From: Planktothrix mougeotii LEGE 06226
Lineage (GTDB): Bacteria; Cyanobacteriota; Cyanobacteriia; Cyanobacteriales; Microcoleaceae
DNA: 52,507 bases
NCBI RefSeq assembly: GCF_015207485.1
Contig: NZ_JADEWU010000005.1
Span: 1-52,507 of the forward strand
Reading direction: 5' to 3'
The position numbers were made by a program, and so were the translations under genes. The notes below the pieces were generated by a model that worked only from the letters and a program-made list of their open reading frames with translations, was not told the DNA's origin and searched no databases. Position 1 is the stretch's first letter, and every line of letters begins with the position of its first letter. Positions 15,910 to 52,507 of the stretch are shown piece after piece.

Positions 15910-16200
15910 ATGGCACTTCCTTTCGGCTTACTCGCTAACACCCTGGCACAGTTCCTCAACATTTATATGATAATCCTATTTATTAGGATTTTATTAAGCT
16001 GGTTTCCAACTATTAACTGGTTTGATCCCCCCTTCTCGATTTTAAGTCAGTTAACTGACCCCTATCTCAATCTTTTTCGGTCTTTTATTCCACCTTTAGG
16101 GGGAATTGATTTTTCAGCTATTATTGCTATTTTTGCTCTCCAATTTGGCTCTCAAATTATTATTGCTTTATTAGGCAGTATGCAGCAAATGGCATTTTAA
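15910..16200 (+). CDS. YggT family membrane protein (Ycf19-like)
   Basis: 96 aa; YMIILFIRILLSWFP ... DPYLNLFRSFIPPLGGIDFSAII matches YggT family conserved features. Confidence 0.75.
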   Translation: MALPFGLLANTLAQFLNIYMIILFIRILLSWFPTINWFDPPFSILSQLTDPYLNLFRSFIPPLGGIDFSAIIAIFALQFGSQIIIALLGSMQQMAF

Positions 16201-16405
16201 TTCCCACCGTAGTAAGCCCTTCAGGGCTTTCTTTATTTTCCGCAAATGGTATTTTAATTCCCACTCCAAACGTAGTAAGCCCTTCAGGGCTTTCTTTATT
16301 TTCCGCAAATGGTATTTTAATTCCCACTCCAAACGTAGTAAGCCCTTCAGGGCTTTCTTTTATCAAATTGAGTTAAAAGAAAAGTCCTGAAGGACTTACT
16401 ACGTT
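16184..16405. repeat. About 3 tandem copies of a ~63 bp unit containing the palindrome AAGCCCTTCAGGGCTT, followed by an inverted partial copy (MITE/REP-like element)
   Basis: Direct reading: unit GCAAATGG(T/C)ATTTTAATTCCCAC(TCCAAA)CGTAGTAAGCCCTTCAGGGCTTTCTTTATTTTCC repeated ~3x (16184-16365); then the inverted variant AAAGTCCTGAAGGACTTACTACG at 16381-16403. Lies between the convergent yggT and ntrC. Confidence 0.8.
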
Positions 16406-18948: not shown

Positions 18949-19641
18949 ATGGAACGTATTCCAGAAGTAGAAGTCATGGATACTTGGGAAGAAGCCAGCG
19001 AGTATGATGCGATGGATTTTAGCCAAGTTAATCAAGAATTTGCCGAATTAGCAATAGAATTAGGGCCAGAAACCGGATTAATCTTAGATGCGGGAACGGG
19101 GACAGCACGGATTCCAATTTTAATCGCTCAAAAGCGATCGCGCAGCGGCGTGGCTAACGCATCGCAATGGCAAATTACCGGAATTGATTTATCAGCAAAT
19201 ATGCTATTTATTGGCAATCAAAATATTGAGCAAGCGGGGTTACAGGAACAAATCAAATTAGAACAAATCGATGCCAAACAGTTACCTTATCCCGATGATC
19301 AATTTGATATGGTCATTTCCAATAGTATTGTTCACCATTTGTCAGAACCTCTGCTATTTTTTCAAGAACTTCAGCGCGTGTTAAAACCCCAGGGAGCAAT
19401 ATTTCTAAGAGATTTAACTCGCCCCAGTAGTGAAACCGAACTCAATACCTTAGTTGAACAATATGCAGGAAATTGTAACGACCATCAGAAAAAACTATTT
19501 CGAGACTCCTTACAAGCGGCTTATACCTTAGATGAAATCATTTATTTGATCGAGTCTGCGGGTTTAGAGAAGATGAGAGTTTATCAATCTTCTGATCGCC
19601 ATTGGACAGCAGAACGTTCCTATCCTGCTGCTCCCAAATAG
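18949..19641 (+). CDS. Class I SAM-dependent methyltransferase
   Basis: 230 aa; motif I LDAGTGTARIPILIA and post-I acidic residue; VLKPQGAIFLRD motif. Confidence 0.7.
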   Translation: MERIPEVEVMDTWEEASEYDAMDFSQVNQEFAELAIELGPETGLILDAGTGTARIPILIAQKRSRSGVANASQWQITGIDLSANMLFIGNQNIEQAGLQEQIKLEQIDAKQLPYPDDQFDMVISNSIVHHLSEPLLFFQELQRVLKPQGAIFLRDLTRPSSETELNTLVEQYAGNCNDHQKKLFRDSLQAAYTLDEIIYLIESAGLEKMRVYQSSDRHWTAERSYPAAPK

Positions 19642-27380: not shown

Positions 27381-28010
27381 ATGAGTGCATCCAGTAGCCC
27401 TGATAATCTGATTAATAACCCCGTGAGTTCCTCTGTTCCTGTAGAACAAAATTCAGGTAAACCACTGCCTTATGTTGCCCAGGAAGATATCATTTATCGT
27501 GCTTTTGATCGCAAAACCGTCTGTCGAGTTTTGAGTCAAGCGCATATTTATGTATCCATTCGCTGGACAAGAACTCATCTTTATATTGGCATTCCCAGCA
27601 CCGTTTTAGCGGCTGTTGCTGGTGTGCAAGCCATCAGTGGGACTTATCAATTAGTGGCGGTGATTATTCCCGTTTTAGTCGCTATTCTTGCACCGTTATT
27701 AACCTTTTTAGATCCCAATGGTAAAGCGAATACCCATTTAGTCGCCTCCAGAGTTTATGAACAAATGGCAGATCAATATGATTCCTTTTTACTCAAATGT
27801 CGTTTAGAACCCCGACCCATCGAGGAAGAACTTAATGATTTAGTTCAGATTAATTCTGCCTATGGTGAAAGCAAAAAATCCCTTCCGGCTTGTCCTGAAT
27901 GGGCTTATCAAAAAGCCCTTCGCACAGAAAATGACATCCAAAAGCTGATTCCTGCTGAACTTAAAAAAGCCGGGAATTATGGCAGATCTATAGGCAATAC
28001 ATCTTCTTGA
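27381..28010 (+). CDS. Hypothetical 2-TM membrane protein
   Basis: 209 aa; two adjacent hydrophobic helices (IGIPSTVLAAVAGVQAI / LVAVIIPVLVAILAPLLTFL) flanked by soluble regions. Confidence 0.4.
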   Translation: MSASSSPDNLINNPVSSSVPVEQNSGKPLPYVAQEDIIYRAFDRKTVCRVLSQAHIYVSIRWTRTHLYIGIPSTVLAAVAGVQAISGTYQLVAVIIPVLVAILAPLLTFLDPNGKANTHLVASRVYEQMADQYDSFLLKCRLEPRPIEEELNDLVQINSAYGESKKSLPACPEWAYQKALRTENDIQKLIPAELKKAGNYGRSIGNTSS

Positions 28011-33614: not shown

Positions 33615-34682
33615 ATGAAAAATTCTCGATCGCCTTCCAGAACCGATACTTGGGTGGGAAAAGTAATAGATCAATTTCCCACTTTTATTATCGGATTTTT
33701 TACGGGATCACTGATCACAGTTTATGGAACTTTGACTCAGATTGATTTATTAAGCCATCTAAATGCTGATCCTAATATCCTAAATTTCTATCAACAATTA
33801 TTGGGATTATCTCATGATACATCAGAACAAAAAAAACAATATAGAGGATATATTGAAAAGCTTAATATTAGTGTGAATCCTAATACGTTAATTATTCATG
33901 TTTTGCCTAATTCTATTTGTGAATCTGCTATTTATGAAGGAGATCGTGTACAAGTTTTACCTCCTGTTGAGGTAATTGGTCAACAAAATTCTGCTCAAGA
34001 TACAGAATTTAATTTATTGAAACAGAGGGTCAATCAAATTATTAGTGATGGGTTTGGGTCTCTTGAAGTTGTCACTCCTGAAAATCAATTAGCACTGATT
34101 GAAATTAATCTACTCAATGAAGAACAAAATTGTGTGAGGAAACCTAAATATATTCAAGAGTTAGAAAAGCTCCTAGAGCAGAAAAAATGGAAAGAAGCTG
34201 ATCAAAACACGAATCAGGTTTTACTGAAAATTACGAATCGAGAAAGTGTTGGTTATTTGGATGAAGATGCGATTCAAAAAATGTCTTGTTCCTACTTAAG
34301 AACGATTGATCAGTTATGGAAAAAATACTCAGGAGGGTTATTTGGATTTAGTGTTCAGAAGCGAATTTTTGTAGAAACTGAAAATGAGCTAGAAGATGAT
34401 AGTTTAAATCGATATGATCCCAATGCTTATATTCATTTTACCGATTTAGTTCGCTGGATTGAATCAGGGAAAAATGGAAAAGAAAAATGGAAAAATTATA
34501 ATGAATTGACTTTTTCTTTAGAAGCACCAGAAGGTCATCTTCCTCGTCTAAATCAGCTTGAGAAAGGAATGAAAAAGGAATCCAATTATCAACTTTTTTC
34601 TCCCAATGCGCTTCCCTTATCTTCCCAAGAAATTAAAGCAAGAACCTTATTTTTTACACGAGTTGATACTTGCAAGCTTTAG
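33615..34682 (+). CDS. GUN4-like domain protein with N-terminal hydrophobic segment
   Basis: 355 aa; C-terminal region SCSYLRTIDQLWKKYSGGLFGFSVQKRIFVE closely resembles the GUN4 domain signature (…DL.TID.LW..YS.G.FGFSVQ…); N-terminal TM (FPTFIIGFFTGSLITVYG). Confidence 0.5.
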   Translation: MKNSRSPSRTDTWVGKVIDQFPTFIIGFFTGSLITVYGTLTQIDLLSHLNADPNILNFYQQLLGLSHDTSEQKKQYRGYIEKLNISVNPNTLIIHVLPNSICESAIYEGDRVQVLPPVEVIGQQNSAQDTEFNLLKQRVNQIISDGFGSLEVVTPENQLALIEINLLNEEQNCVRKPKYIQELEKLLEQKKWKEADQNTNQVLLKITNRESVGYLDEDAIQKMSCSYLRTIDQLWKKYSGGLFGFSVQKRIFVETENELEDDSLNRYDPNAYIHFTDLVRWIESGKNGKEKWKNYNELTFSLEAPEGHLPRLNQLEKGMKKESNYQLFSPNALPLSSQEIKARTLFFTRVDTCKL

Positions 34683-36443: not shown

Positions 36444-37631
36444 TCAGGACAAATCACCCCCCATATTTTGATAGCGTTCTACCATTTTACAAGCGGCTTG
36501 ATACTGTTTTTGGGCAAGTTCTGGTGGAGATAAAACCTGTGCTAAGTTTAAATATTGATTGACCCAAATCATAAATTCATTGAGTGATCGAGAAGGTAAC
36601 TGAATTTTATAATCTACAAATAATAGTTTCCCCTGTTCATCTTTAATCGTCTTAATTTGTTGACGAATATGGCGACGCTCCCCTTCTAAAATAAAATTAG
36701 TAGCGGGAGGAAAAAAGCGAATATGAACCAATTTTAAAGGCAGTTCTCCCGCAAGTTCCTGTTGTTGTTCGACTGCATTCCCTAAATTTAATCCCCATCC
36801 TTGGTTTAATAATTGATGAGCTTTTTGTAAATTATTATATTGTTCTTGGAGAGGTCGAGATTGGGATAAAAATTGGCAATAATCTCGATAGCGGTTGATT
36901 CGACCAATCGTGAGTTGACCGTTTTCGCAGGATTCATAGACCAAATACCAAGCAATATTAAAATGAATCAGTTGTAATGGCCAAATTTTTACTAATCCAA
37001 TTTGTCCAGAATTATAGGGGTCACTGAACCGAGAAATTTCAATGGCTTTTCCAGTGAGAATTGCCTCTTCAATCTGATCTAATTGATGAAAAAGAGTATT
37101 TTGTACATTGCCCATTTCCAACATTTCATCCGGGTCAGTCCACACAATAGAACGGTTGAGTTGTTGTCGAACAGGATAGAAAAATTCTCCTTTTCGTTCT
37201 AAGTTAACCCCTCGTAATCGCTTTTCTAAAGTTTCGCAAATTCGTCTCGTTTTGGAGTCCGCTTGATATTGACTCAAGGAAACTAACAGTTGAAACGCAA
37301 CTTGTAATTCCTCCCAACTCATCACACCTGTTCCGAGATAATAACCCCAACGGTACATTCGCTGTTCGAGAATGCTGTAGCGCCGTAGGGTTTCGATATC
37401 TTTACGAATTGTTGGTAAAGCGGGATAACCCGGAGGAAGGTTAATTTTCAGTTCAGAGGCAAGCTGCTGTAAGTGATATTGGACATCTGATAGAGCATTC
37501 CGATGTTCTCCTTTCTGAGTTGGGGGAGTGTTACCAACCCCTGGATATTGAACCAAGGTGGCAATTAATAACATCAATCGCTCAAAGGCTTGTTGATCTG
37601 AATAGGAATGGCGTGTTGGCTTTTTAGCCAT
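36444..37631 (-). CDS. WYL-domain transcriptional regulator, divergent from the cmr operon (putative CRISPR-Cas regulator)
   Basis: 395 aa; literal WYL tripeptide in the context IAWYLVYESCENGQLTIGRINRYRD, which fits the WYL-domain consensus (WYL ... R ... R.). Position immediately upstream of, and divergent from, cas10. Confidence 0.5.
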   Translation of the reverse strand: MAKKPTRHSYSDQQAFERLMLLIATLVQYPGVGNTPPTQKGEHRNALSDVQYHLQQLASELKINLPPGYPALPTIRKDIETLRRYSILEQRMYRWGYYLGTGVMSWEELQVAFQLLVSLSQYQADSKTRRICETLEKRLRGVNLERKGEFFYPVRQQLNRSIVWTDPDEMLEMGNVQNTLFHQLDQIEEAILTGKAIEISRFSDPYNSGQIGLVKIWPLQLIHFNIAWYLVYESCENGQLTIGRINRYRDYCQFLSQSRPLQEQYNNLQKAHQLLNQGWGLNLGNAVEQQQELAGELPLKLVHIRFFPPATNFILEGERRHIRQQIKTIKDEQGKLLFVDYKIQLPSRSLNEFMIWVNQYLNLAQVLSPPELAQKQYQAACKMVERYQNMGGDLS

Positions 37632-38033: not shown

Positions 38034-42190
<4,157 letters not shown>

Positions 42191-42195
42191 AAACC

Positions 42196-43026
42196 ATGAC
42201 AAATTTAGTGTATTTGTATCTACTCGCTCCCTTACATACAGGGGGAACCACTCAAGAAGGAAATCTATTAGGAATTGCCCGTGAATCTCATACGAATTTA
42301 CCTTACATTCCTTCCAGTAGCATTCGGGGAAGAATTCGAGCCAGTGTCAGCGATCGCATTACCTGTGTTAAGCTGTTTGGCCCGGATTTAAAAGATTTAG
42401 AAAATCGTCAGTTTTTAGATGAATATAAATTAGAAACCAATAAAGATCTCACTCAATTAGAACAAGGAGATATTTGGATCGGCGATGGTTCCTTATTATG
42501 GTTGCCTGTTCCTTCTTTAAGTCATGGTGTTGTCTGGATTAGTTGCCCGCTTCTGTTACAACGTTGGGCAAGATTTAACCCAAATTTACCTGAAATTCCC
42601 GCACCTTATAGCACAAATTTAGGGAATTCTAATGTTTATCTCAAAGATGCTATTTTAAAACAAAATCAACTCTCTACCTGGAATAATTGGAAAGACTTTC
42701 TTCCGCAAAACCAATCGAATCAATCAATTCAACGGGTTTTATTACTTCCTGATCAACATTGTGCCACCTTAATTCAAATGAGTTTGTGGCGACAAGTGAA
42801 AGTTAAACTTGATCAAAATAAATCAGTTGATGGTGGTTTTCGTTATGAAGAAGCCATCCCTCCTGATAGCGTGATGTATTTTCCTTGGGGAATTACATCA
42901 CAAACTAATGGCACAGCAGAAAAATCAAAGACAGATTTTCAAGACTTGCTTTCAGTTAATGAAGTTTTACAAATTGGGGGTCAAGAAAGTTTAGGTCGTG
43001 GTTTTGTTCAATCTTGGTTAAATTAA
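42196..43026 (+). CDS. cmr4: Cmr4 (Cas7 backbone subunit); start chosen at the Met 6 nt after the cmr3 stop
   Basis: About 276 aa; N-terminal LYLLAPLHTGGTTQEGNLLGIARE...LPYIPSSSIRGRIRA is the characteristic Cmr4 G-rich and RAMP motif. Confidence 0.75.
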   Translation: MTNLVYLYLLAPLHTGGTTQEGNLLGIARESHTNLPYIPSSSIRGRIRASVSDRITCVKLFGPDLKDLENRQFLDEYKLETNKDLTQLEQGDIWIGDGSLLWLPVPSLSHGVVWISCPLLLQRWARFNPNLPEIPAPYSTNLGNSNVYLKDAILKQNQLSTWNNWKDFLPQNQSNQSIQRVLLLPDQHCATLIQMSLWRQVKVKLDQNKSVDGGFRYEEAIPPDSVMYFPWGITSQTNGTAEKSKTDFQDLLSVNEVLQIGGQESLGRGFVQSWLN

Positions 43027-43046
43027 TTATTTAAGGAGTTAAACTC

Positions 43047-43427
43047 ATGGCATTTGATCCACGTACTATTGCTACTCCTGTTTATGAAGCATTATCAGGA
43101 CTGCAAACTCAATATTACAATCAAAATGAGCGCCTTCAAGAACAAAAAAGCCAAGCTGTTGAATTGTATACCTATTTAGCCACTTGGGGATTGATGCGAC
43201 TTAAAGCAGAAGAAACAGCGTTAAATCAAGACGGTAAAAAAGATGTAGTTAAAAAATATTTTGCCTGTTTAGAAGAACTATCTGGGTTAACTAATCTTGC
43301 TAATGCTGAAGGTCTTAAAATCTTAAAAAATCTCAATGCAGATGAATATTTAGGTTTAACAGGTTTAGGTTTAACAGTCGCTCAAGAATTTAGTTTTTGG
43401 GCAAATGCTATTTATGTAGGAGACTAA
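43047..43427 (+). CDS. cmr5: Cmr5 (Cas11 small subunit)
   Basis: 126 aa all-helical small ORF between cmr4 and cmr6, the standard position and size for Cmr5. Confidence 0.65.
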   Translation: MAFDPRTIATPVYEALSGLQTQYYNQNERLQEQKSQAVELYTYLATWGLMRLKAEETALNQDGKKDVVKKYFACLEELSGLTNLANAEGLKILKNLNADEYLGLTGLGLTVAQEFSFWANAIYVGD

Positions 43428-43431
43428 GATT

Positions 43432-45411
43432 ATGGCTTTTGATCGACCCAGAAGACCAGGACAAACCCCACCAGCGACCTCTCGCCCTAACCAAGCAGTT
43501 CAACGTAATACGTCTCGACCAACTCCTCCAAATTCTAATCGTTCATCAGGTGGTGATGGGGGTCGCAGAGGAGGAGGAAGCAATGGCGGTGGCGGTGGCG
43601 GCGGCAATCAACCTAATCTCCCGTCCCCTTGGTTAGATTCTGACAATGAACCTTCGCCAGATAAAACGGCCAGTTTTGTTGAATATTTGCGTTGGATGCG
43701 TTCCCCTGATAGTGGCTATAAAGACGCGACAAAAGTTCAAATTTTACAAATGGCGGAGGAAAACGCTAACTATCAACAACGTCTGGAACAATTAACAGAC
43801 CGAACTCAATTAATTGCCGGAAAAGAAAACTGTTTTAAAGTCAAATGTCCTTGGCGAATTCGAGTCGGAGGACATCGGGGGCCAGAAAGTATTTTACTTC
43901 CTGCTTTTGATGCCTTGGGAATGCCTTATATCCCGTCTTCTAGTTTGCGAGGTGTGGCAAGAAATCAAGCTATTCGGGAAATCATGTCTAAGGAAAAAGT
44001 AGACTGGAAAGAAGCCGAGAAACAGATTGCCCCTTGGTTTGGTTCTCTTGAGGAAGAAGAGAAAGATCGCTCTGGAAAAGTGATATTTTTAGATGCCTAT
44101 CCTCTTCCTAAACAAGATGGGTTAACCGTTGATATGGCTAATAATATTTGGAAATGGGAGGGAAATGATTTCAAGTATAACCCTAATCCTAATCCATTTT
44201 TATCTTTAAAAGAACCGATGTTTTTAATGGGTTTACGGTTAGCTATTGGATGTACTGATATTGAAGTTTTAAACCAAGTTAAGAAATGGTTAATTAAAGG
44301 ACTACAAGCCGGAATTGGTTCTCAAGTGAATACGGGTTATGGAGAACTGATGAAAGCGGGAGAAGGACGACCGAAAGAGGAGTTTTTCAGCTTAGATTTT
44401 ACCCTACAAGGTCAACTCATTCATGGGCGACAAAAGTTTACTCAATGGAACTGGAATGATAACCGTCAAGAATGGCAAATGCGAGGTCAAGCAGAAGCAG
44501 AGGTGCGTCCTGTTGCGTTTAAATCCATGTTGAGATATTGGTTTAGAACTTTAGCATTAGGTGTTTTACCGATAGGAGAGGTTTCGACTTGGGAAAATAA
44601 GTTATTTGGAGGGATTAATCCTCAACGGGAATGGGGTTGGGTTAAAGTTGAAATTTTAGAAGGAAAAGTGACTCAAAAAGAACCTAAACCTAATTATCAA
44701 GGTAAAAATGATCCTTGCGGAGAACAGGAAGGAACCTTAACCCTTTCCTATGGAGTCGGTTGTCCAACTGATCCTAAAACTCGACAAGCCATCAATACAT
44801 TAATGAAGAATTTAACTTGGTTAATGTTTCATTTAGGAGGGATTGGACAGGGAGCAAGACGACCGTGCTATTCTCGTCAAACCCGTGAACGTGCCCCTTG
44901 GTGGAGAGGCTCAACGTTAATTCCTAATGATGATGATTCCTTCTGGGAATTACCTGATAATGTTCTAGCGTTTAAAGAGAAATGTGTCACTCATTTACAA
45001 AAAATTTATCAAGCCATTTCTCAACTGTTTAATATTCCTAATCTTCGTCCGATTAATAATCCCATTAATCTAGGACAAGTGCGTCAAGATAACTGGAAAG
45101 AAGCCATTGATGCTAACTGTCGGATTATTGTTTGTGCTGGGAAGTCTCAACAGGAGAAACCTTATGCTTTAGGAGTGTTACATAGTCCTGATTTTAAAAT
45201 TACTAAAGGTCAATACAAGGATTATGACGGTAATTTATGTGGTCAAGTTAGCCGAGGGGTTAAACCTTCTCCTGTTTGGATTGCAGATCTAGGAGATTAT
45301 CAAGTTGTAACAATATTTGGAGCGACAGAAAATCCTCGACAGCGTTATATTCAGGAGTTGCGATCGCGCACTTCCAAGGATAACTTTGCTCAAATCTGGC
45401 CATTAAATTGA
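43432..45411 (+). CDS. cmr6: Cmr6-like Cas7 RAMP, unusually large (659 aa) with N-terminal Gly/Arg-rich low-complexity tail; possibly a Cmr6/Cmr1-type fusion
   Basis: RAMP motif GMPYIPSSSLRGVARNQ; G-rich loop HLGGIGQGARRPCYS; N-terminal SSGGDGGRRGGGSNGGGGGGGNQ; no separate cmr1 gene in the locus. Confidence 0.6.
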   Translation: MAFDRPRRPGQTPPATSRPNQAVQRNTSRPTPPNSNRSSGGDGGRRGGGSNGGGGGGGNQPNLPSPWLDSDNEPSPDKTASFVEYLRWMRSPDSGYKDATKVQILQMAEENANYQQRLEQLTDRTQLIAGKENCFKVKCPWRIRVGGHRGPESILLPAFDALGMPYIPSSSLRGVARNQAIREIMSKEKVDWKEAEKQIAPWFGSLEEEEKDRSGKVIFLDAYPLPKQDGLTVDMANNIWKWEGNDFKYNPNPNPFLSLKEPMFLMGLRLAIGCTDIEVLNQVKKWLIKGLQAGIGSQVNTGYGELMKAGEGRPKEEFFSLDFTLQGQLIHGRQKFTQWNWNDNRQEWQMRGQAEAEVRPVAFKSMLRYWFRTLALGVLPIGEVSTWENKLFGGINPQREWGWVKVEILEGKVTQKEPKPNYQGKNDPCGEQEGTLTLSYGVGCPTDPKTRQAINTLMKNLTWLMFHLGGIGQGARRPCYSRQTRERAPWWRGSTLIPNDDDSFWELPDNVLAFKEKCVTHLQKIYQAISQLFNIPNLRPINNPINLGQVRQDNWKEAIDANCRIIVCAGKSQQEKPYALGVLHSPDFKITKGQYKDYDGNLCGQVSRGVKPSPVWIADLGDYQVVTIFGATENPRQRYIQELRSRTSKDNFAQIWPLN

Positions 45412-45473: not shown

Positions 45474-47186
45474 ATGTTAACAGAATACCAATTAACCAAT
45501 TTTAAAGCGTTTTCTAAAACGAAACCGATTCCGATCCGGCCGATCACGTTGATTTATGGCCCTAATTCTTCTGGTAAAAGTTCTATTATTCAGTCTTTAC
45601 TGTTACTGAAACAAACCTTACAACAGGCAGAAAGCCCTAATATTATCCTAATCCCTAAAGGAAATTTAGTTGATTTAGGCAGTTATCGAGACTTTGTATA
45701 TTGCCATGATGTTAGTCAACCTTTTTCAATCCAAGCAACGTTACCGTTTCAGCCGAAAAAATTATTAGAAAAAGGTTGGGCTTTAGAACAGCTACAAGAT
45801 ACTACAGAACTGAAAATTAGAATTAACTTTGCTTATGATGCAGAACAATCACAAATTGTTTTTGATTCAGTTTTGTTATTTATTAATCACCCAACTATTC
45901 CTTTAATTTCTTATAAATGCCTAGAGGGAGATCCTAAGTTTTTAGTTTTAGATCAATTTAACCCAGAACATCCTCTGTGGCAAGGTTGGTGGAAAGAAGC
46001 AAAAAATAAAATTCCCAAAAACTTTAGAAACAAGGTCAAATCAATTCTTAAAGAATTAGGCTTTAATGAGGCTAAAAGAAATAATGCTGCTAAAAATCTA
46101 GTAATTGTAGAGAACAAAATTAAAGAACTAGAAGTTGAAATAAAAACCATTTTAGATCAGATAGAATTAGCTAAATCTAACTCAGATAATAATCTAGTTT
46201 CTAGCTTAAAACAAGAGTTATCTTCTCTCAATTATAAATTAGACGAATTCAACGCTATTAAAATTTTATCTCATCGCTTTGATAATTATAATATTAAAGA
46301 GGGAATAGAGGATTTATTTCTAGTCCAATCCTATTTATTTGGAGTTGAAAATCGAAATTTTTTACCCTATAGTTTATATAAAGAGGAAAAAGCAGATGAT
46401 CAAAATTTTCAGCTAAATTATCTATCCGAAGTTTATTCAAAGTTAGATTCTAAGGATTGGATATCAGATTTAACAAAAATTATCGATCCTGTGTTTCGAG
46501 GATGGATGGAAAAGATTGTTTATATTGAGCCATTAAGAGATTATCCAGAACGATTTTATATCTTTAGTGATTATTCGGGAAGCCAAGTTGGAAAAGAGGG
46601 TTCCCAAATTTCTAATTTATTATTCAATAACCCTCAATTGATTGAGCGTATTAATCAACAATTCAAAAATTTTAAATTAGGTTATGAAGCAAAAATTGTT
46701 AAGTTTATAGATGAAGAGGATTCAACAGGAAGCAATCTTTTTGCTATTCGTCTTTATGATGAATTTACCAAGGTTAACGTCAGTATTTTAGATGTTGGTT
46801 TTGGGATTAGTCAAGTTTTACCGATTCTTGTTCAATGTATGTTTTCTCATCAAAAAACAATTTTAATTGAACAGCCAGAAGTCCATATTCATCCTCGGCT
46901 ACAAACTGAAATAGGTTCACTTTTCGCCGAATGTATTAAGCTTCCCTATGAGAATCGATTTATTATTGAAACTCATAGTGAGCATTTAATTCTTAGGCTT
47001 CAAAAATTGATTCGTAAAGGAGAGTTAAAACCTGATGATATAGCCGTGATTTATGTTGATCGTTCTTCGGAAGGGTCTAACTGTTTAGAGTTAAGACTTG
47101 ATGAAGATGGTGACTTTATTGATGAATGGCCACATGGATTTTTTGAAGAAGATTTTCAGGAGATTTTTGAAAATTATGCTTTATAG
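45474..47186 (+). CDS. ABC/OLD-like ATPase (AAA_21-type) without fused nuclease domain
   Basis: 570 aa; N-terminal LTNFKAFS...ITLIYGPNSSGKSS (Walker A); C-terminal ILIEQPEVHIHPRLQ (Walker B / D-loop-like, IDEPE..LHP pattern) and IIETHSEHLIL (H-loop), the hallmark layout of AAA_21/OLD-family ATPases; AT-rich. Confidence 0.65.
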   Translation: MLTEYQLTNFKAFSKTKPIPIRPITLIYGPNSSGKSSIIQSLLLLKQTLQQAESPNIILIPKGNLVDLGSYRDFVYCHDVSQPFSIQATLPFQPKKLLEKGWALEQLQDTTELKIRINFAYDAEQSQIVFDSVLLFINHPTIPLISYKCLEGDPKFLVLDQFNPEHPLWQGWWKEAKNKIPKNFRNKVKSILKELGFNEAKRNNAAKNLVIVENKIKELEVEIKTILDQIELAKSNSDNNLVSSLKQELSSLNYKLDEFNAIKILSHRFDNYNIKEGIEDLFLVQSYLFGVENRNFLPYSLYKEEKADDQNFQLNYLSEVYSKLDSKDWISDLTKIIDPVFRGWMEKIVYIEPLRDYPERFYIFSDYSGSQVGKEGSQISNLLFNNPQLIERINQQFKNFKLGYEAKIVKFIDEEDSTGSNLFAIRLYDEFTKVNVSILDVGFGISQVLPILVQCMFSHQKTILIEQPEVHIHPRLQTEIGSLFAECIKLPYENRFIIETHSEHLILRLQKLIRKGELKPDDIAVIYVDRSSEGSNCLELRLDEDGDFIDEWPHGFFEEDFQEIFENYAL

Positions 47187-48201
47187 AACAGTAATTTCAC
47201 CTTCAGTCTTTAACATTACAGAAAGTAATTCTTCTCAGTATAGGTTCGTTATAAGTTTACTTAAAGACTTAGACAAAAATGGGTTGATTTTAGTAGATAA
47301 AAATGATAGAAATGAAGTTTTGTTTCCTCAAATTCTACAATATGTAGAAAACTGGGATACAAGATTTAAAATTCCTGCAAAAAAATTAATAAAGAAATTA
47401 CGAGAAAATAACCGTATCATTAAAATCAGTGATTTTTCTCAAGTTCATAATACTCCTATTACTTGTGGATATATAGTTGATCAAATTGCGTTAAAATTTA
47501 GTCCTGATGCCATTTTCTCAACACAAAATTGTTGTATTAATAATAAAATTAATCAAATTGATATTATGGATTATGTTATATCTGGATTTGATGATAAAAT
47601 TCAATCTTATGATTTTAGCCTTAATCAAGGACAATGGACTAAGGAAATATTTGAAAATGAAGTCTTGATTTCATTATTCAAAGATGCTAAATACATTAAA
47701 CTTTATAATCGCTATATTGGAAGAACAATCTTGACAAAGAATAGAGGATATAGAAATACTTTAAACTGGATTCTTGATGTATTTATTAGAGAGTCGAATT
47801 TTCTGAAGCCAGGTGTAAGCAATCGAGTAATATTTGAAATCTATACAGGGATACAAGTTGGTGGCAAACAAGGTTTATCAACATCAGATTTATATTCTGC
47901 TATTACGGCTATTAGAGAGTTAGAAAAACAACTCTATAGAAAATTGACTTTACAAAAAAGCAATGCAGATGTTAAAATTTATATCAAAAAAGAAAACGAT
48001 TGCGATAACCCTAAAACATTTCCTCATGCTCGTTATTTATTTACTGATCAAATCGGTTTGTGTATAGATAGAGGCTTTGATCTTTTATATTCGCCAGATC
48101 AGAATTCTATTCCTTCTTTAATTAAGGATCTTCATATTTCTTATCATTCAGATAAATCTAAAATCGCAAGAGAAGTAAATCAGCTTGAAGATTTACTGTA
48201 A
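47176..48201 (+). CDS. Uncharacterised partner protein of the ATPase (342 aa from Met-27; ORF extends upstream to 47098), translationally coupled
   Basis: In-frame ATG at 47176 overlaps the ATPase stop (47184-47186) by 11 nt; AT-rich; no motif recognisable by eye (no HNH Cys/His pairs, no obvious TOPRIM E...DxD). Confidence 0.45.
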   Translation: MLYRTVISPSVFNITESNSSQYRFVISLLKDLDKNGLILVDKNDRNEVLFPQILQYVENWDTRFKIPAKKLIKKLRENNRIIKISDFSQVHNTPITCGYIVDQIALKFSPDAIFSTQNCCINNKINQIDIMDYVISGFDDKIQSYDFSLNQGQWTKEIFENEVLISLFKDAKYIKLYNRYIGRTILTKNRGYRNTLNWILDVFIRESNFLKPGVSNRVIFEIYTGIQVGGKQGLSTSDLYSAITAIRELEKQLYRKLTLQKSNADVKIYIKKENDCDNPKTFPHARYLFTDQIGLCIDRGFDLLYSPDQNSIPSLIKDLHISYHSDKSKIAREVNQLEDLL

Positions 48202-51773: not shown

Positions 51774-52507
51774 TTCCCTACTCGTTAGGGAAATTAATTG
51801 ATTGGAAACATCTCTTAACATTAAAGCTATTAAAACAGCTGCAATAATTCCCTACTCGTTAGGGAAATTAATTGATTGGAAACTTAATGGCAAACGAACA
51901 ATATTTCTTATCCAGCAGCAGGTTTCCCTACTCGTTAGGGAAATTAATTGATTGGAAACCAACAACAACCCAAGGTTCATTCATATAAACTCCGTTATTG
52001 AATTCCCTACTCGTTAGGGAAATTAATTGATTGGAAACACGTCGGTCCATCACACGCAGAGCAGCCTTTTGATAAGGCTTTTCCCTACTCGTTAGGGAAA
52101 TTAATTGATTGGAAACTTACGTACTAAAGGGTGGAATGTAACATTTATCCCATTTGATTCCCTACTCGTTAGGGAAATTAATTGATTGGAAACCGGAATT
52201 GATAAGGAAGTTCAGCCCCTGCTTGTTCATTCCCTACTCGTTAGGGAAATTAATTGATTGGAAACATCAACCCAATCAGGGTTGCACATATCTTCAGGTT
52301 CGAGTTGAACTTCCCTACTCGTTAGGGAAATTAATTGATTGGAAACCATGCTTGTTTAGGAGTGATATCCACTTTAATAAACTTCATTATTCCCTACTCG
52401 TTAGGGAAATTAATTGATTGGAAACTGGTCTGCATATATACAGCCACCATTTCTAGTAGCCATATTTCCCTACTCGTTAGGGAAATTAATTGATTGGAAA
52501 CATCCAT
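51774..52507 (+). CRISPR. CRISPR array, at least 10 repeats of 36 nt (TTCCCTACTCGTTAGGGAAATTAATTGATTGGAAAC), spacers 36-45 nt, truncated by the window end
   Basis: Repeats at 51774, 51848, 51924, 52003, 52081, 52158, 52230, 52311, 52390 and 52466; unique spacers of 38, 40, 43, 42, 41, 36, 45, 43 and 40 nt; repeat has an internal CCCTA-CTCGT-TAGGG hairpin and a GAAAC 3' end. Confidence 0.95.

Follow-up and report, generated by a model that had tools for sequence, protein, structure and literature searches.

The Cmr6-Cmr1 fusion of a III-Bv-type CRISPR locus in Planktothrix mougeotii carries a translated, basic N-terminal tail

The window analysed here, a 52,507-nucleotide (nt) stretch of contig NZ_JADEWU010000005.1 from the cyanobacterium Planktothrix mougeotii LEGE 06226, contains at 43432..45411 (+) an open reading frame (ORF) whose product of 659 amino acids (aa) is a fusion of the CRISPR proteins Cmr6 and Cmr1. 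Such a fusion, known as Sll7085 in Synechocystis, is a published hallmark of the Cas6-less subtype III-Bv (PMC6546367; PMC10243305). Both the fusion and the subtype are therefore already in the literature, and the window gene, which starts with ATG and encodes the subtype's Cmr head subunit, is the Planktothrix ortholog of sll7085. The fusion forms the head of the Cmr complex, the end that caps the 3' region of the CRISPR RNA (crRNA), and its first ~63 residues are translated, typical of the family, basic and, by prediction, disordered; we regard the identity of the protein and the translation of its tail as close to certain. A conserved tail of this kind belongs to the head subunit in a type III complex relying on host RNases and not on Cas6; its role, if resolved, might reveal by what means type III systems without Cas6 are linked to the RNA metabolism of the host, or how they capture RNA. 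The explanation favoured here as a whole, a III-Bv head fusion whose basic tail would tether RNA, appears reasonably probable to us.

Two-domain architecture and subtype of the fusion

The product is identical to WP_193868021.1 and occurs, unaltered, on five assembled contigs; the strings quoted from the ORF in the initial annotation (MAFDRPRRPGQTPP, SSGGDGGRRGGGSNGGGGGGGNQ, GMPYIPSSSLRGVARNQ and HLGGIGQGARRPCYS) are all present. That annotation had read the gene as an enlarged Cmr6, possibly fused to Cmr1 or decorated with extra domains. Profile, PDB and fold searches settle the matter in favour of the fusion: the protein is Cmr6-Cmr1 and not an enlarged Cmr6, with Cmr6 occupying aa ~64-306 and Cmr1 aa ~317-659. 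When a family profile of 76 sequences (A1) was searched against the PDB sequences, positions 94-310 matched Cmr6 chains (9arw_H, 8.6e-13; 3x1l_H, 1.8e-8; 4w8v_A) and positions 351-477 matched Cmr1 chains (P. furiosus Cmr1-1, 4w8x_A, 1.2e-4; A. fulgidus Cmr1, 4l6u_A, 6e-4; 'Cmr1-MntA', 9z7q_I, 6.7e-4). The AlphaFold2 (AF2) model of the fusion has a mean predicted local distance difference test (pLDDT) value of 82.6 and a predicted template modelling score of 0.82. Its best Foldseek matches in the PDB are Cmr1 (9l7c_A, 1.6e-8; AF1868, 4l6u_A/B, 6e-8), followed by the Cmr6 chains 6s6b_I, 3x1l_H and 4w8v. The fit to the two-domain fold of Cmr1 is moderate, with a target-normalised TM-score of 0.52-0.59 over 349-380 columns and a root-mean-square deviation of 7-8 Å.

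The Cmr6 half is recognised by curated models, Pfam and NCBIfam returning a single RAMP/Cmr6 match at aa 135-306 (TIGR01898 with 51.3 bits against a cut-off of 51.1 over aa 161-306; PF03787, 2e-17). Its RAMP core, supported by these two models and by PDB Cmr6 chains, spans aa 136-306 (43837..44349, +); within it lie GMPYIPSSSLRGVARNQ (43918-43968, +) and the glycine loop of Cmr6, GIGSQVNTGYGEL (aa 294-306; 44311-44349, +), which the profile search aligned with GVGAKTSLGYGRF of PDB Cmr6. Ahead of the core lies a conserved N-terminal region, aa 64-135 (43621..43836, +), with the motifs PSPWL and ASFVEYLRWMR, invariant columns at P64, W67 and A80-R90 of the family profile, and three AF2 helices at 82-87, 97-111 and 115-129. 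Residues ~94/97-135 can be aligned to solved Cmr6 chains, to 9arw_H from residue 94/97; submitted alone, aa 1-141 (tail plus N-terminal region) gave nothing meaningful in Pfam. The low-complexity stretch of ~120 residues that had been annotated at the N-terminus is thus borne out for aa 1-63 and not for aa 64-135, which are conserved and helical in the model.

The Cmr1 half (aa ~317-659; 44380..45408, +) was assigned by profile, PADLOC and Foldseek. It carries LRYWFR (44530-44547, +), the aromatic first-helix motif of the RRM-like N-terminal domain of Cmr1, aligned as xRxWFRA to P. furiosus Cmr1, in which R368, Y369, W370 and R372 are invariant and F371 is present in at least 90% of the family profile. 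In S. islandicus, Cmr1 needs the W-F pair of this helix to capture targets and to bind crRNA (PMC5737701). At the motif, EVRPVAFKSMLRYWFRAFALG aligned with EVRSPSIKGAMRWWFRALAGS of P. furiosus Cmr1, and the Cmr1 glycine loop HLGGIGQGARRP, of the type that ends in RR/RRG, was located at 44830-44865 (+). The Cas7-type G-rich loop of the initial annotation does exist, but it belongs to this half and not to Cmr6, since LGGIGQGARRP aligns with P. furiosus Cmr1 LGSVGFRSRRG; the ~180 residues that follow it are the C-terminal part of Cmr1. The 499-position PADLOC profile named 'Cmr6' extends over aa 102-656 (5e-33); the Cmr1 profiles of the same collection fall on aa 351-477 (E 1.6e-4 to 1e-3). Curated Cmr1 sequence models remained under threshold, with no NCBIfam Cmr1 model at E<=0.01 and Pfam RAMPs at E 0.013 on the isolated C-terminal half, so that the Cmr1 assignment rests on family-profile and fold evidence.

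Fusion homologs of 632-678 aa are common across cyanobacteria, with 950 matches, among the top 120 of which are Planktothrix, Microcystis, Spirulina, Nostoc and Leptolyngbya; in an exhaustive homolog search, E<=1e-3 was reached by 602 cluster representatives and E<=1e-30 by 102. The size of the protein is lineage-typical because homologs of this length are so widespread. What had been presented as an oddity of an enlarged Cmr6 is therefore, tail included, ordinary for the lineage and in its fusion already published, an outcome near to the lineage-typical Cmr6 that the initial annotation had named as the contrary case.

The locus fits the III-Bv type in its operon, its fusion, the lack of a cas6 match and its CRISPR3-type repeat. 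The window protein shares 49% identity over 90% of its length with Sll7085, and the two systems have in common the two-domain architecture, the operon order cas10-cmr3-cmr4-cmr5-fusion and the kind of N-terminal tail, ending in PSPWL...ASFVEYLRWMR; no cas6 was found at either locus. In the window, neither cas6 nor a separate cmr1 was matched by Pfam, NCBIfam or PADLOC among the locus genes and all but one of the ORFs of at least 170 aa, up to ~370 aa, which for cmr1 agrees with the initial annotation; the scan covered the window only, and at 42-49 kb six ORFs of 82-156 aa fell outside it. The CRISPR array (51774..52507, +) contains at least 10 repeats of TTCCCTACTCGTTAGGGAAATTAATTGATTGGAAAC and reaches past the end of the window. 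The 3' 19 nt of this repeat, AAATTAATTGATTGGAAAC, are identical to those of the Synechocystis CRISPR3 repeat and make up the portion from which RNase E generates the 13/14-nt handle. Both repeats also share a 5' stem-loop, which differs between them through compensatory changes; the minimum-free-energy folds place the stem at nt 2-20 in the window and at nt 2-18 in Synechocystis, the rest being single-stranded. The folds agree with PMC12464536, according to which the III-Bv repeat has a 5' stem-loop and an unpaired AU-rich 3' half with an RNase E site and a 13/14-nt handle, and the subtype, being without Cas6, depends for crRNA maturation on RNase E, with RNase J also involved.

The two systems differ in the details of the tail, which in Sll7085 (MPNPMEKPRPQKP..KKKVITTPVSGGGKKAGGGSGG) is Lys-rich and bears KKVIT, whereas that of the window protein (MAFDRPRRPG..GGDGGRRGGGSNGGGGGGG) has Arg only and is without KKVIT. 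They also differ in their accessory genes, which are an AAA_15/DUF3696 ATPase, a CARF-HEPN and a CARF-WYL protein in the window and a peptidase and others on pSYSA. Finally, sll7085 is borne on the plasmid pSYSA, whereas the window copy is flanked by GUN4 and GTPase genes and is most likely chromosomal.

Canonical Cmr6 and Cmr1 are separate proteins (P. furiosus 3x1l/4w8v/4w8x; A. fulgidus 4l6u/9l7c) with the same RAMP folds, glycine loops and RxWFRA motif. They lie side by side at the head in solved complexes, whereas in the window protein they are covalently joined, Cmr6 then Cmr1, with a disordered tail of ~63 aa added; in structural alignments the sequence similarity is low, at 11-21%. The best-scoring relative among the solved Cmr6 structures, the 'CSD domain-containing protein Cmr6' of 9arw_H/9z7q, likewise has extra residues, ~120 of them, before its Cmr6 part (start ~123). 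We infer that its cold-shock domain (CSD), an RNA-binding domain, lies within residues 1-122; it differs from the window tail in being folded, and Cmr1 in that complex is supplied by another chain, one fused to MntA. No paper associated with PDB entries 9arw/9z7q was found in literature searches.

Translation, composition and conservation of the tail

The basic, predicted disordered tail comprises aa 1-63 (43432..43620, +), as delimited by AF2 pLDDT, composition and the ratio of non-synonymous to synonymous substitution rates (dN/dS). A Shine-Dalgarno sequence, AGGAG, can be read at 43418..43422 (+), 9 nt 5' of the fusion ATG, which itself stands 4 nt after the cmr5 stop codon (TAA, 43425-43427); Planktothrix agardhii has AAGGAG at the equivalent place, so that both Shine-Dalgarno sequence and ATG are conserved. 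Two in-frame indels, one of 9 and one of 15 nt, separate the tails of the two species, and dN/dS between them is 0.34-0.41 in the tail and 0.13-0.19 in the body, with a significant excess of synonymous over non-synonymous change in the tail (Fisher p=0.005). Moreover, in Table 1 of the Synechocystis proteogenomics study, sll7085 is an 'alternate start' ORF extended by 69 aa, with eight novel peptides and 251 peptide-spectrum matches. Because only 70-79 aa, reading MPNPMEKPRPQKPQPP...KKKVITTPVSGGGKKAGGGSGGNQPPSPWL, precede ASFVEYLRWM in that protein, the 69-aa extension spans the Gly tract. We infer an old start at GTG V74 and a new one at M5, giving 69 aa, and every plausible old start puts the Gly tract inside the extension; the RefSeq annotation of sll7085 is now the long form.

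That older annotation, which began 69 aa further downstream, is the point in favour of a misannotated start, by which the tail would be untranslated and the protein would begin at Met89 or Met107. Against it stand the Shine-Dalgarno sequence and ATG right after the cmr5 stop, the in-frame indels, the purifying selection, the conserved N-terminal peptide and the Synechocystis peptides, and no Shine-Dalgarno sequence was seen at any of the internal start candidates (codons 86, 89 and 107). We give this alternative a negligible probability, and the downstream start that the initial annotation had envisaged as a refutation of its tail does not hold.

Low complexity is limited to aa 1-63, which contain nine Arg, no Lys and two Asp (net charge +7), 24% Gly, 14% Pro and 17% Asn+Gln; AF2 pLDDT is below 50 for aa 1-57. 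The tail opens with the short motif MAFDRPRRPG (43432..43461, +), for which the family consensus is M-V-F-[DE]-R-P-K-[RK]-P-[GN], and contains the Gly-rich tract GGDGGRRGGGSNGGGGGGG (aa 40-58; 43549..43605, +), which includes (TGGCGG)x3.7 at 43584-43605. With 14 Gly in 20 residues, the tract is the sole place across the six frames of the window with at least nine Gly in 20; from the six-frame Gly frequency of 0.054, ~5e-9 such stretches are expected, the window DNA having 39% GC. A Tat or other secretion signal was considered and rejected, as there is no hydrophobic h-region (6% hydrophobic residues).

Conservation of the tail was assessed in the 120 best homologs of the 950 matches, and motifs were counted in 118 tails. 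In 119 of the 120 the tail ends at an invariant PSPWL, the remaining one being a truncated fragment. The tails measure 32-75 aa (mean 58), and their composition is 19% Gly, 15% Pro, 19% Asn+Gln, 15% Lys+Arg and 4% Asp+Glu. The net charge is positive in all of them (+2 to +13, mean +6.2), and acidic and hydrophobic residues make up 4% and 10% of the tail against 11% and 32% of the body. The middle of the tail is poorly conserved (consensus identity 0.34-0.41); the first 10 residues are conserved. Indeed, phi-[EDQN]-[RK]-[PS] occurs within the first 15 aa of 107 tails, against 1.8 in shuffled sequences, and KK(I/V)ITV stands ahead of the Gly tract in 62 tails, against 0.1, though it is missing in the window protein. 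The Gly-rich segment itself is almost absent from 13 of the 118. In the fusion of Gloeothece PCC 7822 (40% identity), AFERPPNPK and ASFVEYLRWMR are kept and the Gly tract is lost, which implies that the terminal peptide is more deeply conserved than the glycine run. Taken together, the low predicted order, compositional bias, kept charge and sequence turnover characterise the tail as a predicted disordered region under constraint.

The description of the tail as 'RGG-like' proved weak. RGG/RG domains are usually defined by clustered di- or tri-RGG repeats. The window tail shares with the eukaryotic RGG/RG low-complexity domains its Gly-rich, Arg-containing, disordered and positively charged character, but it has a single RGG (GGRRGGG) and no cluster, and in the family Asn and Pro are as prominent as Gly. 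RG/RGG is missing from 43 of the 120 tails and occurs 0-1 times in 87, Lys often standing in place of Arg. The further statement, that tails of this sort have not been described for Cmr complexes, stood up: no paper discussing the tail of these fusions was found in a literature coverage that is incomplete and does not include the primary III-Bv paper.

Relative length variation is ten-fold larger in the tail than in the body, with a coefficient of variation (CV) of 0.12 against 0.012, and the alignment is inflated. Among strains, the Gly tract is stable. The Gly tract of the window protein is five aa longer than that of P. agardhii, through the in-frame 15-nt indel. Within P. agardhii it is identical in all type-A sequences (at least eight) and differs by 1-3 residues among type-B sequences. 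Slippage-driven variation, proposed initially as a check, is thus not apparent as hypervariability, and the tract was rejected as a contingency locus, the indels being in frame. Planktothrix has two unrelated tail 'alleles', MAFDRP...SSGGDGGRR... and MSPNPWER...KKIITVGGSGGGGGN... (homologs P0001/P0130-P0145 compared with window 43432-43620), and both occur on bodies 82-89% identical to the window protein, even inside a single cluster at 90% identity, a pattern that points to recombination or a cassette-like exchange at the gene's 5' end.

Outside the close family, additions to this head subunit recur. Distant fusions (33-39% identity) have other additions at the N-terminus, namely a region of ~80 aa, basic MxKKxSLxDL peptides or coiled-coil inserts. 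The ~80-aa region, with the pattern W..F(L/V)...L.L.F, is found in fusions of 30-39% identity, P0221, P0224, P0225, P0227, P0237, P0240, P0250 and P0255 (L005:8659-8900; L007:8593-8830); from its sequence it is probably a small alpha/beta domain, and its sole Pfam hint, DnaA_N-like PF23007, is sub-threshold (E 0.045). P0240 starts with MSFERRRRP, similar to the FxRP motif, and in P0227 a P/R/N-rich tail is found at the C-terminal end. The C-termini of P0289 (741 aa) and P0298 (685 aa) consist of a basic linker and a conserved ~60-aa KTKKGKWKV domain, which shows a weak, sub-threshold match (E 0.015) to the MutS2/Smr-associated SH3 domain (MSSS, PF20297) and may be another RNA-binding add-on. 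In Euhalothece natronophila pEu1, the protein at the Cmr5 position (L006:8282-8875) has an N-terminal tail of ~65 aa rich in Lys/Gln/Asn/Pro, and the fusion (L006:8890-10488, 532 aa) is tail-less; it seems that different subunits of these complexes can bear a basic disordered tail. The rule that the tail is present if and only if cas6 is absent was rejected as uninformative: the fusions of Microcystis NIES-2481, Euhalothece and Nostoc TCL26-01 lack this tail, yet no cas6 is annotated within 9 kb of them.

Possible functions of the tail

In solved Cmr complexes, Cmr6 and Cmr1 constitute the head that caps the crRNA 3' end (3x1l, 9l7c), so that an N-terminal arm on Cmr6 would project from the crRNA-3' end. 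We propose that the tail might act there as a flexible, positively charged arm, in which the Gly/Asn/Ser tract would serve as an entropic spacer of loosely constrained length and the basic Pro/Gln/Arg(Lys)-rich part, together with the N-terminal phi-D/E-R-P-K/R-x-P peptide, would make transient contacts. These contacts would most likely be a non-specific tethering of RNA, be it pre-crRNA, the crRNA 3' end or target transcripts, and beside the RNA-binding Cmr1 module such tethering would raise the efficiency of capture. Deduced from sequence features, this function is a tentative proposal. In its favour we count the constraint on the tail, with its always positive charge and its motifs, and as precedents the CSD-containing Cmr6 of 9arw_H, the Lys-rich Cmr5 tail of Euhalothece and the C-terminal tail of P0227. 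Several observations speak against it. A terminal peptide conserved in its position is seen more typically in protein docking than in non-specific RNA binding; RG/RGG is sparse; the tail is under weaker selection than the body; the absence of KK(I/V)ITV from the window protein implies that the tails of the family may not all work alike; and the AF2 monomer models of the window protein and of the KKIITV-bearing homolog P0005 show no docking of any tail segment. In P0005, aa 1-58 including the motif are left at pLDDT 28-42, and docking of KKIITV on the body as a beta-strand was rejected, no intramolecular docking being predicted.

The tail could instead serve to dock housekeeping RNases of the host (RNase E, RNase J, PNPase), or some other partner, at the crRNA 3' end, with the N-terminal peptide, and KKIITV in other members, as binding motifs and the Gly tract as linker. 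This possibility, the main rival though in our view rather unlikely, draws on the position of both motifs far above shuffled expectation, on the persistence of the FERP motif at 40% identity despite loss of the Gly tract, and on the reliance of Cas6-less III-Bv on RNase E and RNase J, for which the enzyme that produces the mature 3' end is still unassigned (PMC12464536). It has a precedent in Csm5 of the S. epidermidis III-A system, where a basic, predicted disordered region (IDR2) on a type III head subunit was shown experimentally to recruit and stimulate PNPase for crRNA 3' maturation, 71-nt intermediates building up upon its deletion (PMC9762709). IDR2 differs, however, in being an internal loop of ~11-46 residues with no sequence similarity to the window tail, in a system that has Cas6, and the function of the window tail is hypothesised. 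RNase E, PNPase and the cr3RNA complexes occur together in sedimentation fraction 10, but this co-sedimentation is non-specific, and the proteins shared as enriched in the RNase J co-immunoprecipitation are reported without mention of a Cmr subunit in the accessible part of PMC12464536. Furthermore, tail-less or otherwise tailed distant fusions are also without annotated cas6 nearby, so that there is no simple correlation between tail and loss of Cas6. A bolder version, in which the tail would be a built-in adaptor recruiting degradosome-type RNases to the crRNA-3' head and thereby replacing the need for Cas6, with basic tails on Cmr5 or at C-termini as interchangeable solutions, seems doubtful to us.

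It is improbable that the tail is a largely neutral, solvent-facing low-complexity appendage, kept by GGN slippage and with no specific function. The ten-fold larger length CV, a dN/dS two to three times that of the body, the small hexamer repeat at the DNA level, the two unrelated alleles on similar Planktothrix bodies and the 13 tails almost without a Gly-rich segment would all agree with neutrality; but dN/dS is significantly below 1, more than 100 homologs, some as low as ~40% in identity, retain the tail, its positive charge and its terminal motifs, type-A P. agardhii sequences do not differ in the Gly tract, and coding sequence rich in GGN persists in a genome of 39% GC. Still far less credible is a prion-like or RGG-like role of the Gly/Asn/Gln/Arg-rich tail in driving condensates or clustering of Cmr complexes, an idea raised in the initial annotation: the composition would fit (Gly 19-24%, Asn+Gln 17-19%, few hydrophobics, positive charge), but the tail is short (~60 aa) and present once per complex, aromatic 'stickers' are nearly missing and RGG is sparse. 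For RNA tethering as for docking, a tail of the same kind is available in Synechocystis Sll7085, in a host with established interference assays and crRNA Northern blots.

Neighbouring genes and further observations in the window

The fusion gene is the 3' end of the cas10-cmr3-cmr4-cmr5 operon, the upstream part of which (38034..43427, +) consists of cas10/cmr2 (38034-41075), cmr3 (41087-42190), cmr4 (42196-43026, according to gene finders) and cmr5 (43047-43427), the last identified by the PADLOC model PDLC01383 (E 3.7e-61). For cmr4, the ORF list gives a TTG start at 42166 that overlaps cmr3, and gene callers on identical contigs use 42196 (276 aa); of the two, the shorter is the more probable. 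Divergent from and upstream of cas10, a CARF+WYL protein is encoded at 36444-37631 (-; PDLC01036, E 8.7e-54), a candidate regulator of the operon that might respond to cyclic oligoadenylate.

On the 3' side, the fusion is followed in order by an AAA_15/DUF3696 ATPase, an unknown gene, CARF-HEPN Csx1/Csm6, csx18, cas1, cas2 and the CRISPR array. The ATPase (AAA_15/AAA_21/DUF3696), whose top PADLOC matches are NsnB, HEC-03B and AriA-like, and the adjoining unknown ORF (367 aa; 341 aa by gene finders) occupy 45474-48201 between the fusion and csx1. Both are present in the window and in locus L009 and missing from L011 (P. agardhii LR882934); the pair resembles an indel cassette made up of a candidate defence module of its own, inside the CRISPR locus.

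Elsewhere in the window, weak or partial matches to defence models were obtained at 18949-19641, 27381-28010 and 33615-34682, comprising a mad2-like match (6e-18), a 2TM 'Effector' (1e-21) and a PD-T4-6-like region of a GUN4-domain protein (9.5e-34). Finally, ~3 copies of a 63-bp tandem repeat, each with the hairpin AAGCCCTTCAGGGCTT, were noted at 16185-16390 in what is apparently an intergenic region.

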